Shown piece after piece: positions 654-23,325 of a stretch of 64,000 nt of DNA. Origin of the DNA: Fibrobacter sp. (GTDB lineage: Bacteria > Fibrobacterota > Fibrobacteria > Fibrobacterales > Fibrobacteraceae); NCBI GenBank assembly GCA_024399035.1, contig JAKSID010000012.1:11125-75124 (forward strand). The letters are read 5' to 3'. Both the position numbers and the translations under genes were made by a program. Position 1 is the stretch's first letter; every line of letters starts with the position of its first letter. The notes under the pieces were generated by a model. The model was not told the DNA's origin and searched no databases. It was given only the letters and a program-made list of their open reading frames with translations.

Positions 654-2831
654 TTATTTCTTAACTGCGCGGACCACGCTGCCCTTGCTCTTGAGCAGGT
701 ACATGCCCTGGCGAACATTCAGGCGCAGGCTGCCGTCGTCGTTGAGGGCCTGGCCTCTGATGCCGCTCCACAGCAGGTTGCCGTTCATGTCGAAGAGCTT
801 TGCGTTGGCGGTATTGTCGATGAGGTTGAACTTGTAGCTTTCCTGGATTGCGGTAGACTTGGTGGTGCAGCCGGTGGCTACGATCTTTGCGATGTTGATG
901 CCTTCGGCGTTGCTGTTAAAGGTAAGGGCGGTAGAACCGTTCTGGCCTTCCTTTGTGAGGGGGACTGTAGTTTCGCTCCACTTGGATCCGCTGGCAAGGT
1001 TGCCATACTTGTAGTCGACCCAGCTGGAACCTGCGGCGCCGCCAATGTTTACGTAGGCATTTTCGGTGGTGGTGCTACGCATGGTGAACACCAACTTTTC
1101 GCAGGACTGCAGAGCCTTGGCGCCAGCCTCGCTAATGTTAAAGAGCTGGTTTCTGTAGGAGCATACGCCGGTGGTGTCTGCCTGGTCGCAACCTGCCAGA
1201 GGAACGACTGCGTAACCGCTGACGCCGTCCAGTGCGGTGGTGCTGTGGGTAACTTCGGCAAGTTCTTCGCTCATGGCCTGCCAGGTGGTAACGTCGGTAG
1301 TGGTGGAGTAGTCTACGATCACCACGTCTTCGGAGGGAACTTCAACCGGTTCCACGTAGCTTGCGTCGGAAGTTTCGTCCTTACAGCCGGAGATGGCTGC
1401 GGTTGCGGAGCTCTTGGAGTAAACCAAAGTGGTGATGGAACGTGCCGGAAGAACAGTGCAATCGGCAATGCTGATTTTCTTGCTCTTGGCACCGTTTTCC
1501 TTGGACTGGACTGCAGTGACAATGCCCATATCGGTGATGACGGGATTGTCCAGCTTGATTTCGGTCTTGCCGGTGTTGATGACGATGACAGAAACGGAGT
1601 CGCCGGCAGTGCTAGCGAAGGCCACGGTCTTCAGGCTAGATTCTGCGGTGGTTGCGGAGACGACCTTCCAGCCCGGATTCACGAACTTGGAGTAGTGACG
1701 CATAGCGTGGTATTCCGGGAAGATCTTGATTTCGGTACCTTCGCAAACGAACTTGCCTTCGCCGGTCAGGTCCCAGCCTGCGCCGGGGCACACACCAATC
1801 ATCTGGCTGTGGTAACCGTAGAAAAGTTCCCAGGCGATGTAACCGTTCAAAAGACCGTCGGTAAAGCCGACCTGCATGATGTGGGCGAGGCCAACCATGT
1901 CTTCTTCACGAGGTTCGTCCAGCATGGGGCAGAACTCGGTCATGATAATGGGCTTGTTGCTTGCAGAAACGCTGGTGGCGATTGCAGTCATGGGCTTGCG
2001 GAAGTTTTCCGGGTTCAGGTAGTTGTTGCCGGAGTTGTCGTTGCCATCGCCTGCGTGGTACAGGTGGTAGGCGTAGCCGTCGAGCTTGCTCTGATCCAGT
2101 TCTGCAAGATACTTCTGGAAGTTGTTGTAGCCGATGCCCAAAGGTTCAGGACCCAGGATCTTGGGACGGTTGGACATGCCGTTAAATGCGTCGTAGATTG
2201 CGTTGAGGGCCTGCTTGTAGCCTGCCTTCCTGGATGTTTCCGTGGGGTCGAAGAGGGTTTCTTCGTAACCGGCGAACATGTCCGGTTCGTTCTGGAAGGA
2301 AATGTAATCCGGGGTGATGCCTAATGTGGCGTAGGTTTCAAGGCTCTTCTTCCACCAGTTTGCAAAATCGGTGTAGGCGTAGGCGCCGTACTTGTCGCCG
2401 CTAGCGGTTTTCAGAGATGCCTTGGTGGAGTCGCCATTGGCTGCGTTGCCGTTGACATTGTTGCTGCCCTTGAGACTGCCCGGTGCTGACCAACTGGACA
2501 TTTCGATCTTCATGTGGTCGCCCAGGCGTTCCTTACCGGCCTTGATGATAGCGAGGTCGTCAGCCAAGCTATCCTTGGCGTTAGCCATTTTTCCGTCACT
2601 CTGAAGCCAGTTGCCGATACGAAGGATTGAAAGATTCAGACCGTTGAAGGCGGTATCAAAAAGATCCTTCTGGTCATCATCTGAAAGGTTTGCAATCCAG
2701 TTCTGGTAATAGACGCTGCCGCCGCCAAAACCAATGACGGTCTGCTTTGTTGCAGTCGGATTTACTGTTACCGTAGCTGCAGAGGCAACCATCGCAGAGG
2801 CAAGGGCTGCGGGAATAAGAATTTTTTTCAT
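654..2831 (-). CDS. Secreted GH30 (glucurono)xylanase-type hydrolase with an extra C-terminal module and basic export tail
   Basis: Signal peptide MKKILIPAALASAMVASA; motifs GFGG, SSWSAPG, ISFQNEPD (acid/base), MTEF (nucleophile) and HYSKFVNPG; tail LFDMNG...GMYLLK. GGAG RBS upstream of 2831. Confidence 0.85.
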   Translation of the reverse strand: MKKILIPAALASAMVASAATVTVNPTATKQTVIGFGGGSVYYQNWIANLSDDDQKDLFDTAFNGLNLSILRIGNWLQSDGKMANAKDSLADDLAIIKAGKERLGDHMKIEMSSWSAPGSLKGSNNVNGNAANGDSTKASLKTASGDKYGAYAYTDFANWWKKSLETYATLGITPDYISFQNEPDMFAGYEETLFDPTETSRKAGYKQALNAIYDAFNGMSNRPKILGPEPLGIGYNNFQKYLAELDQSKLDGYAYHLYHAGDGNDNSGNNYLNPENFRKPMTAIATSVSASNKPIIMTEFCPMLDEPREEDMVGLAHIMQVGFTDGLLNGYIAWELFYGYHSQMIGVCPGAGWDLTGEGKFVCEGTEIKIFPEYHAMRHYSKFVNPGWKVVSATTAESSLKTVAFASTAGDSVSVIVINTGKTEIKLDNPVITDMGIVTAVQSKENGAKSKKISIADCTVLPARSITTLVYSKSSATAAISGCKDETSDASYVEPVEVPSEDVVIVDYSTTTDVTTWQAMSEELAEVTHSTTALDGVSGYAVVPLAGCDQADTTGVCSYRNQLFNISEAGAKALQSCEKLVFTMRSTTTENAYVNIGGAAGSSWVDYKYGNLASGSKWSETTVPLTKEGQNGSTALTFNSNAEGINIAKIVATGCTTKSTAIQESYKFNLIDNTANAKLFDMNGNLLWSGIRGQALNDDGSLRLNVRQGMYLLKSKGSVVRAVKK

Positions 2832-2977
2832 CCAAAACTCCTTATTGGATATATTTCGATATACCCATACGACCAAACCGCAATCTAAAAATTTTTGCGA
2901 CCAAAGGTCAAAACGTGAGTTTTAGATAAGAAGAAATTTAATGGCTCGTTCCTTATAACAGAACGAGCCTGACGACA

Positions 2978-3272
2978 AGCATTAGAAAAGGCTCTGGTTA
3001 TTAAACCAGAACCTTTCTCATGCTAAAATCGTCTATCAAGTACGCGTTGTGCTCTAGACGAGAGCTTGGCTGACCGGAGGTTATTTATTAATGAACGAGC
3101 CAAGCGGTATTGCTGTGCTCATTTTGCGTTAGCATTAGAAAAGGCCCTGGTTGTTTTAAACCAGAGCCTTTCTCATACTAAAATCGTCTTTCCAGTACGC
3201 GTTGTGCTCTAGACGAGAGCTTGGCTGACCGGAGGTTCTCTATTAATGAACGAGCCAAGCGGTATTACCGTG
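2978..3272 (-). ncRNA. Two tandem copies (2978-3117, 3131-3272) of a structured RNA-like unit, each ending in a terminator
   Basis: Near-identical direct repeats with period 153 and conserved stems. Differences between the copies in the terminal hairpin give G-U pairs only on the minus strand. Confidence 0.55.
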
Positions 3273-3317
3273 AGCAAAAAGCCCCTGATATCAATCAGGG
3301 GTGTTTGCGAGAGTGAG
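3270..3317 (-). repeat. Short hairpin element (GTGAGCAA...TGCGAGAGTGAG family), likely terminator of the upstream sugar transferase gene
   Basis: CCCCTGAT/ATCAGGGG stem with a U-tract on the minus strand. Its ends match the element at 23182-23229. Confidence 0.65.
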
Positions 3318-3357
3318 TGCTGTCAAATGGACTTTTGTGCATTGTGCACGAACGGTC

Positions 3358-4530
3358 TTAGTAAGCGCCTTCGCCCTTAAACACAACCTTAAAGGTCTTC
3401 AGGATAAGCTTGAAGTCATCGCCCAGCTTACCGTCGCGACGGATATAGTCGTTGTCCAAACGCATCTGGCCTTCGAAGCTAATATTGCTGCGGCCGCTGA
3501 CCTGCCAAATGCAGGTAAGGCCCGGCGTTACAGACAAACGCATACGGTGCCAGGGCTCGTATTCGGCCACTTCGGAAGGAATCGGCGGACGAGGGCCCAC
3601 GATGGACATGTCGCCCTTGATGATGTTGAAGAACTGCGGGAGCTCATCCAGGCTGAACTTGCGAAGGATGCGACCGAAAGGATAGATTCGGGGGTCGTTC
3701 TTCATCTTGAAAGTCTTACCGCCAGTTTCGTTCATTGCCATAAGAGCTTTTTTGCGTTCTTCGGCGTCGGCGTACATGCTGCGGAACTTGTACATGGTAA
3801 AGAGCCTGCCGTTTTTGCCTACGCGGGTCTGCTTAAAGATAACGGGGCCCTTGGGGTCGCTGATCTTGACTGCTGCGGCGCAGAACAAAAGAATGGGGGA
3901 GCACAGGACGATGGCCGCACTGGTGCAGGTCAGGTCCACGATTCGCTTGATCACATGGCGGTAGCGGATCTTGTTGGGGTGCTGCCAAATGTGGTCCAGG
4001 TTCAAGCGCTGCAAGGTAAAGAATGCGCCGTTGGTGCTGTTGAAGTCATCCAACTGGGCCTGCATCTCGAGGTTCGTCTTTTCTTGGGAGCCCATGTAAA
4101 GGTGGGCTTCGAAAATGGGCTTGCGGGGCTTGATTCGCAGGGACTGGATAAGGCCTGCGTCGTTAAGCTTGTGCAAAATTTCTTTGCGGATAGCCACCAG
4201 TTTGTTCATGTCGGAGTTCAGCAAGATAATGCCGATACCGTTGCCATCGGGGAGGTAGCCCAGAACATCGATAAAGCGCAGGTAGGAGAACATGGTGAGA
4301 ATGCTGATTCGCCATGTGTTTTCTACTGTGGGATCGGGGCGGCCCCAGCCGAGAATATCGTACTGGTGGGCGTAAATTTTGATGTAGAGGAACGGCTTGC
4401 GGGTGCGATTGGAACGGAGGAATTCTTCGTTCAGACGAGCCCTGAACAACTTCGCCGGATAGACGATGTTCTTAAGCTTTTGCTCGTCGAGAATGGATCC
4501 AATGGCTGGATTCACAGATTGCTGTTCCAT
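3358..4530 (-). CDS. Polyprenyl-phosphate sugar phosphotransferase with an N-terminal degenerate GGDEF-like region
   Basis: C-terminal motifs KRIVD, FKQTRVG, KFRSM, DPRI, SLDELPQ and MSIVGPRP. The N-terminus LFRARLNEEFLRSNR...IDVLGY resembles a GGDEF fold. Confidence 0.85.
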   Translation of the reverse strand: MEQQSVNPAIGSILDEQKLKNIVYPAKLFRARLNEEFLRSNRTRKPFLYIKIYAHQYDILGWGRPDPTVENTWRISILTMFSYLRFIDVLGYLPDGNGIGIILLNSDMNKLVAIRKEILHKLNDAGLIQSLRIKPRKPIFEAHLYMGSQEKTNLEMQAQLDDFNSTNGAFFTLQRLNLDHIWQHPNKIRYRHVIKRIVDLTCTSAAIVLCSPILLFCAAAVKISDPKGPVIFKQTRVGKNGRLFTMYKFRSMYADAEERKKALMAMNETGGKTFKMKNDPRIYPFGRILRKFSLDELPQFFNIIKGDMSIVGPRPPIPSEVAEYEPWHRMRLSVTPGLTCIWQVSGRSNISFEGQMRLDNDYIRRDGKLGDDFKLILKTFKVVFKGEGAY

Positions 4531-23157: not shown

Positions 23158-23325
23158 CCTTAGCGGCGAACGGGCTGTGTGAGCAAGAAACGCCTCGTCT
23201 CTTAACGAGGCGCTGATGCGAGAGTGAGCCCTTAGCGGCGAACGGGCTGTGTGAGCAAGAAACGCCTCGTCTCTTAACGAGGCGCTGATGCGAGAGTGAG
23301 CCCTTAGCGGCGAACGGGCTGTGTG
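23158..23325. repeat. 72-bp tandem repeat: three 24-bp direct repeats separated by two identical 48-bp hairpin elements
   Basis: CCTTAGCGGCGAACGGGCTGTGTG at 23158, 23230 and 23302. The third copy is the 3' end and stop of the GH26 gene. Confidence 0.95.

Follow-up and report, generated by a model that had tools for sequence, protein, structure and literature searches.

The window, a stretch of 64,000 nucleotides of Fibrobacter sp. DNA, carries a direct repeat pair on its minus strand, between a sugar transferase gene and a GH30-like ORF (Table 1). The initial annotation had described two near-identical units at this place, and the comparison bears this out: the repeats are 92% identical over the whole unit of about 140 nt and 93% identical over a 117-nt core, far beyond chance. 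The sugar transferase gene ends with a TAA codon at 3358-3360 and the repeat array lies in its 3' region. On the other side of the array, the GH30-like ORF starts with an ATG at 2829-2831, with AAGGAG about 8 nt before it, and encodes a protein of 725 aa. This gene had been taken for a GH30 xylanase. A weak GH30-like character stands, but the xylanase identity has only sub-threshold matches behind it (E = 1.7e-16, below cut-off, for the XynC-like family of NCBIfam; E about 0.005-0.01 at best for the GH30 domains of Pfam). The protein probably contains extra domains beyond these matches.

Table 1. Features of the repeat locus, positions in the window. HP1 and HP2 are the two hairpins of a unit, P1 is the stem of HP1 and CM is the covariance model.
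Feature	Position	Strand	Details and evidence
Sugar transferase gene, upstream of the array	3358-4530	(-)	ORF list; Pfam Bac_transf, E 9.6e-63
T0 terminator-like hairpin	3263-3317	(-)	stem 3282-3301; terminator scan
Unit 1	3131-3272	(-)	CM core match 3180-3265, 93.7 bits
Unit 1, HP1	P1 3253-3260 with 3219-3226	(-)	conserved interior 3227-3252; ACCUCC 3231-3236
Unit 1, HP2	3185-3215	(-)	conserved loop 3196-3208; GCGUAC 3195-3200
Unit 1, terminator-like hairpin T1	3131-3180	(-)	
Unit 2	2978-3117	(-)	CM core match 3025-3110, 95.2 bits
Unit 2, HP1	P1 3098-3105 with 3064-3071	(-)	
Unit 2, HP2	3030-3060	(-)	GCGUAC 3040-3045
Unit 2, terminator-like hairpin T2	2978-3026	(-)	
Terminal partial unit	2943-2969	(-)	repeat search, terminator scan, ortholog comparison
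Promoter-like site for the GH30-like gene	2882-2911	(-)	TTGACC-18-TAGATT; 3' of all units
GH30-like glycoside hydrolase, downstream gene	654-2831	(-)	weak family matches

Read on the minus strand, each unit is composed of a stem (GCUUGGCU/AGCCAAGC), a loop carrying ACCUCC, a second hairpin in which UCGUCU is paired with AGACGA, and a 13-bp hairpin followed by UUUUCU. These parts had been pointed out in the initial annotation, the AGACGA segment as the partner in a possible pseudoknot or alternative fold, and are present in both units. A GCUCU-CGUCU-AGAGC hairpin, described at the same time, is also found in the window pair; it is confined to these two copies, and since the other members of the family described below do not have it, it does not hold as a family trait. 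Compared with shuffled sequences, the two units fold with z-scores of -4.7 and -3.8; the plus strand also folds better than its shuffles (z -5.6). In the last hairpin, the copies differ at two places: on the minus strand, C-G becomes U.G and U.G becomes U-A; on the plus strand, these changes would give A.C mismatches. As originally noticed, pairing is thus kept through U.G on the minus strand only, and the view of a structured, RNA-like element on that strand is supported. The terminal partial unit that follows unit 2 consists of the 5' half of HP1 (GGCUCGUUC) and of its own complement, which together form a terminator-like hairpin of 9-10 bp.

Another terminator-like hairpin, T0, sits between the stop codon of the sugar transferase gene and unit 1. 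It has conserved flanks (CACUCUCGCA ... UUGCUCAC) and a linker GGUAA, and is one of a separate family of dispersed, terminator-like hairpins in which the stem varies and the flanks are kept. The flanks of this family are CACUCUCGCA upstream and UUYUUGCUCAC downstream. Elsewhere, members are found at 23158-23325 of the window, as two occurrences together with a second copy of the final codons of the gene, at L012:1467-1500 and, in the genome of the window (G000), at about 33730-33775 of contig C1; at other loci the family adjoins the units. At the orthologous site, T0 is shared with genome G030 and missing in G035, G079 and G080, and therefore looks like an insertion. Because this terminator-like hairpin precedes unit 1, transcription into the window units needs read-through.

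A search of the whole window against Rfam 15 at gathering thresholds, which covered riboswitches, ribozymes, csRNA and the Fibrobacteres motifs, gave no match, in agreement with the earlier remark that the pair was not recognised as a classical riboswitch or ribozyme. With E-values up to 10, the region 2800-3400 only returned chance matches to miRNA models and to assorted sRNA or leader models (ncr1015, rli117, LPR69, L31 leader), all far under their thresholds. Literature searches did not find a description of the two-hairpin element. BLAST with one unit as the query identified partial copies at other places of G000 and in four further genomes of the genus, often at several loci each. An alignment of 17 cores was then analyzed with RNAalifold, and a covariance model was built on the 87-nt core. 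This model finds 12 copies on 9 contigs of G000. Across 101 Fibrobacter species genomes it gives about 140 matches, with robust scores in 14 of the 101 genomes, where 2-21 copies are present in each. The carriers include the nearest relatives of G000, as judged from ArgJ identity. No match was obtained in 53 other genera of the phylum, and a complete single-contig genome searched with the same model contains no copy. A loose three-block DNA pattern was also run on all species genomes, and chance matches dominate among the matches listed. A tighter DNA pattern matched 3 JGI metagenome contigs and no viral contig; within the collection searched, the family is not phage-borne. From these sequence comparisons, the repeat pair belongs to an undescribed, multi-copy family of predicted two-hairpin RNAs carried by one Fibrobacter subclade.

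The family core is made of hairpins HP1 and HP2. HP1 is built on stem P1, of 8 bp and up to 11 bp, and on the asymmetric, conserved interior that this stem closes, CGUUCRU ... GAACCUCCGGUCA, with C-GUUCRUY on the 5' side, a variable apical part, and (A)GAACCUSCGKUCA on the 3' side. HP2 has a 5-6-bp stem, typically UCRRG/CUUGA, which closes a 13-nt loop ending in a near-invariant AGYGCGUAC. P1 is locus-specific yet complementary, and it abuts or overlaps the stop codon of the upstream gene.

RNAalifold on the 17 cores retained one stem, P1, with 7 of its 8 pairs changed on both sides. Over 73 distinct sequences, P1 is 87.5% paired and double-sided changes are observed for all 8 pairs, which none of 500 shuffles reached. 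The sequences define 18 independent P1 classes, differing from each other at at least 3 of the 8 positions and each self-complementary; pairing is 86% within classes and falls to 48 +/- 4% with partners swapped between classes. In an all-against-all analysis of column covariation, P1 alone stands out, and HP1 and HP2 showed no tertiary covariation with each other. The covarying homologues that the initial annotation had looked to are thus present, at more than 100 sites across 14 genomes. The stem of HP2 reaches 69% pairing; 49 of its cells are G.U and would turn into C.A mismatches if the opposite strand were read. A competing pairing of HP2, between an upstream segment and CAGYGCGU, is weaker than the loop-closing stem (53% paired). 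Two mutually exclusive pairings can be drawn in the HP1 interior, GUUC with GAAC and CCUCC with a GG-rich 5' strand, and these fit 83% and 65%, in columns that barely vary. Mismatches in P1 amount to 15 G.U and 24 A.C and carry no strand signal.

A second type of HP1 was also observed (L238, at G079:C80:13251-13338, as well as L074 and L075). It combines a covarying P1 and an unrelated interior of about 28 nt (CACAC...GACA) with a consensus HP2. As this other HP1 is also joined to a consensus HP2, it seems to be HP2 that stays constant across the family. HP2 may also stand alone and be repeated, for instance five times after efp. At that locus (L027, G000:C14:1821-2131), five HP2-like modules (RRAGYGCGUACU) are found in 310 nt. 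A terminator-like hairpin splits the series, and a full HP1 is located before the first module only.

The units are placed systematically. At about 50 of 56 loci, a same-strand ORF of 150 codons or more comes before the first unit, which starts at -10 to +16 nt relative to the stop codon of this ORF. The TAA codon is inside P1 at the loci following ArgJ, EF-P, the phosphorylase and the DnaQ-like gene. Upstream genes are diverse, coding for EF-P, ArgJ, glycogen phosphorylase, DAP dehydrogenase, a SerA-like dehydrogenase, a DnaQ-like exonuclease, a TPR protein and the sugar transferase; in the genome of the window, the module stands behind the stop codons of about ten unrelated housekeeping genes. 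There, all 11 full copies are followed by a hairpin and a U-run. Stop codons in this genome are TAA (58%), TAG (27%) and TGA (15%). Units are strictly oriented as their upstream gene, and at most loci the interval from stop codon to unit contains neither promoter nor terminator. At no fewer than two loci a convergent gene comes next, which excludes a 5'-leader role there. Stop-codon placement, the hairpin and U-run that come after the unit and the convergent neighbours together argue for a 3'-end feature of the upstream gene rather than a leader of the downstream one.

These results bear directly on one of the two functions first proposed for the pair, that of a tandem attenuator or riboswitch controlling the GH30-like gene. 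At the window locus, the arrangement would suit such a switch: the units share a strand with the GH30-like gene, lie some 150 nt before its start and have a terminator-like hairpin each. However, other members of the family follow the stop codons of unrelated genes or face convergent genes, the promoter-like site of the GH30-like gene lies 3' of the units, the gene pair is kept in G080 and G030, where no full unit is present, and no Rfam riboswitch was matched. The proposal is therefore abandoned, and a GH30 switch is, in our view, scarcely credible.

Units occur singly or head-to-tail. Array periods are of 76-88 nt when there are no internal terminators and of 123-155 nt when there are, and arrays end with a partial unit and then a terminator. 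Comparison of orthologous loci reveals a rapid turnover. Behind ArgJ, a plain terminator is present in species that lack the element, and 1-4.5 units or deletion remnants in those that carry it. At the window locus, 0-2 units are found in sister species. G035 has one unit directly after the stop codon. G079 also has one unit, with a different P1, a different HP1 interior and a consensus HP2. G030 has T0 and a remnant. In G080, a truncated HP1 hairpin, equivalent to window hairpin 2943-2969, stands alone directly after the stop codon and is the sole terminator-like hairpin. G000 itself has T0, two units and the partial unit. From this comparison, the window pair can be read as a local tandem duplication of a lineage-specific module that is predicted to be a structured RNA.

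Could the family be a selfish or neutral DNA repeat, of the REP/BIME, MITE or minisatellite kind, spreading and expanding in DNA close to terminators, with a hairpin that matters only at the DNA level, for example as the substrate of a recombinase or transposase? The turnover would fit, with copy numbers from 0 to 4.5 and deletion remnants at orthologous loci. So would the identity of units within arrays, implying recent amplification, the occupation of the stop-proximal site of G079 by a different HP1 type, and the fact that G.U is not in excess over A.C in P1. Against this, neither terminal inverted repeats nor target duplications were seen, orientation strictly follows the upstream gene and viral contigs are without matches. 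Changes in P1 are compensatory between paralogues while the loops are constant, which argues for long-term selection on structure and not for recent copying. Moreover, the Y1 (RAYT/IS200) transposase (PF01797) does not co-occur with the element: it was not found in the carriers G000 (88% complete), G014, G079 and G030 (99% complete) but is present in many element-free genomes. The one IS200-like copy that adjoins units is merely inserted between two of them. It lies at L073:1190-1890 (G035:C46), between two diverged units of an array behind a TPR gene, and has a Y1 transposase of about 150 aa and subterminal hairpins. Altogether, we consider a selfish or neutral repeat unlikely.

REPs stabilise the upstream mRNA. 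They are also said, in work by Liang, Rudd and Deutscher from 2015, to affect translation when located within about 15 nt of the stop codon. The REP/BIME elements of Enterobacteria and Pseudomonas and the Fibrobacter units are both dispersed hairpin repeats of 3' regions, between stop codon and terminator, often clustered in tandem and variable between strains. In contrast with the near-identical stems of REP-family copies, those of the Fibrobacter units differ at each locus and form 18 distinct classes, the loops are conserved and a second hairpin is present. REPs are tied to RAYT transposases, whereas the units do not co-occur with Y1, and the units are counted in tens rather than in hundreds. 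An assignment to REP/BIME was therefore rejected on both stem identity and RAYT/Y1 co-occurrence.

Another possibility keeps a function for the RNA but in trans. The units would then be 3'UTR-derived sibling sRNAs, or a decoy, cut out of the parental mRNA close to its stop codon, arrays being divided into single units. Their action would go through the HP2 loop or the CCUCC bulge, which would either base-pair with mRNAs, Shine-Dalgarno sites being one example, or titrate a protein. Processed 3'UTR sRNAs classically run from the stop codon to the terminator, and this is the span occupied by the units. The units also have conserved, single-stranded-looking segments within variable stems, and their multivalent arrays are reminiscent of RNAs that act as protein sponges. 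Shine-Dalgarno sites are in use in the host: in G000, Shine-Dalgarno-like motifs peak at -9 to -13 before the first ATGs and are found for 30% of long ORFs. The 3' end of 16S rRNA was not found in the G000 assembly.

The second function first proposed for the pair was a version of this possibility, a trans-acting sRNA with an anti-Shine-Dalgarno and an anti-AUG seed. The Shine-Dalgarno usage of the host leaves it some plausibility, but the seed itself does not hold well. CCUCC is CCUGC or CCUGU in about 30% of copies (column 37 has G instead of C in about 22 of 73 sequences), about 60% of copies have CGU in place of CAU (column 19 has G instead of A in about 38 of 60), and CCUCC is often predicted to be paired with a GG-rich partner inside HP1. 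The conserved, accessible CCUCC and CAU of a csRNA-like sRNA were thus not found, and the anti-SD/anti-AUG reading is weakened. A search for trans targets was also negative: once the antisense strands of the elements themselves are set aside, sites of at least 11 nt complementary to either conserved segment are not above chance. In addition, arrays with a period of 76-83 nt have no space for promoters or terminators of their own, and searches of 5 Fibrobacter genomes for Hfq, CsrA and RRM proteins found none. The family has several traits in common with CpxQ-type sRNAs, LhrC1-5 and csRNAs with C/U-rich anti-SD loops, namely an RNA running from stop codon to terminator, several paralogues, some of them in tandem, and a CCUCC loop. 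It differs from them by a putative seed that is variable (CCUGC) and often paired, by the lack of a chaperone among those searched and by its 10-20 loci behind housekeeping genes. Processed sRNAs or a decoy are possible but rather unlikely.

Self-processing can also be envisaged. A new class of small ribozyme would divide arrays into their units or free the mRNA of its terminator. About 25 near-invariant nucleotides located in internal and hairpin loops, beside variable stems, would suit a catalytic RNA, as would the head-to-tail arrays lacking internal terminators. However, no ribozyme family of Rfam was matched, even with E up to 10, HP1 and HP2 gave no sign of tertiary covariation, and nothing positive was obtained beyond the architecture. 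A ribozyme is very improbable. We rank the alternatives with processed 3'UTR sRNAs or a decoy first and the selfish DNA repeat second, self-processing RNA and then the GH30 switch being far behind.

Other known systems were also considered. Type III antitoxin RNAs (ToxI/CptI/TenpI) are, like the Fibrobacter arrays, head-to-tail short structured repeats ending at a terminator. Their 34-45-nt units, however, are directly upstream of an endoribonuclease toxin gene, whereas the Fibrobacter units are of 76-155 nt and stand behind housekeeping genes. The genes downstream of the latter are diverse or convergent, and a type III array with a ToxN/CptN/TenpN-like neighbour was rejected on this gene context. 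Integron attC sites were rejected as well, the copies being behind core genes on many contigs and conserved in the interior rather than at the stem ends. Bacteroides-1 is reported to lie mostly downstream of genes. This motif and similar Weinberg-type motifs of the FCB group (Rfam RF01693-RF01694 and others) are also clade-restricted and were also found by covariation, but sequence and architecture differ from those of the Fibrobacter units and Rfam gave no match. Bacteroides-1 is listed in PMC2864571, and a motif search directed at Fibrobacteres in 2017 started from two RefSeq genomes (PMC5737381). Overall, dispersed hairpin repeats of 3' regions and 3'UTR RNAs are known kinds, and the family differs from both by its combination of locus-specific covarying stems with conserved loops, systematic abutment to the stop codon and tandem amplification.

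The reading that we favour, tentatively, is that of a cis-acting, lineage-specific structured 3'UTR RNA module present in many unrelated Fibrobacter genes. Since neither promoter nor terminator separates the unit from the stop codon at most loci, the module would be transcribed as the tail of the upstream mRNA. That this sense-strand RNA tail is under selection is suggested by its conserved loops, its compensatory stems, its strict sense orientation and its location after the stop codon and before the terminator. The module may act in cis on the mRNA 3' end, as a structured barrier or a termination aid at the stop codon, and such a structured block would shape 3'-end formation and decay. The conserved HP1 bulge and HP2 loop would be recognition sites for a putative factor. 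Arrays would be gained and lost through unequal recombination. The rapid gain and loss of units and the different HP1 type at the same site in G079 are as compatible with a dispensable or selfish repeat as with a functional one.

A more specific version of the cis-acting module can be proposed, in which it would be a new class of RNA device that clamps the stop codon and couples translation of the upstream gene to the 3'-end fate of its own mRNA through the melting of HP1. As P1 abuts or includes the stop codon, each terminating ribosome would melt HP1. The conserved 3' strand of HP1 and the HP2 loop would then become free for a putative factor or for self-processing. The outcome may be decay, release of the unit RNA or avoidance of non-stop transcripts. 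As a whole, this version is improbable.

If the family is only a selfish repeat, it would account for much of the intergenic repeat content of these Fibrobacter genomes and for much of the variation in 3'UTR length between them, and screens for sRNAs and riboswitches should mask it. If the RNA is functional, it would be a new, well-supported bacterial RNA motif in a phylum with almost no characterised non-coding RNAs and with neither Hfq nor CsrA in the genomes searched. Its unusual and testable trait would be that many housekeeping genes have a conserved structure at their stop codon, which can be amplified into arrays. The family would then offer a natural system to study how 3'UTR structures adjacent to the stop codon affect translation termination, mRNA decay and ribosome rescue.
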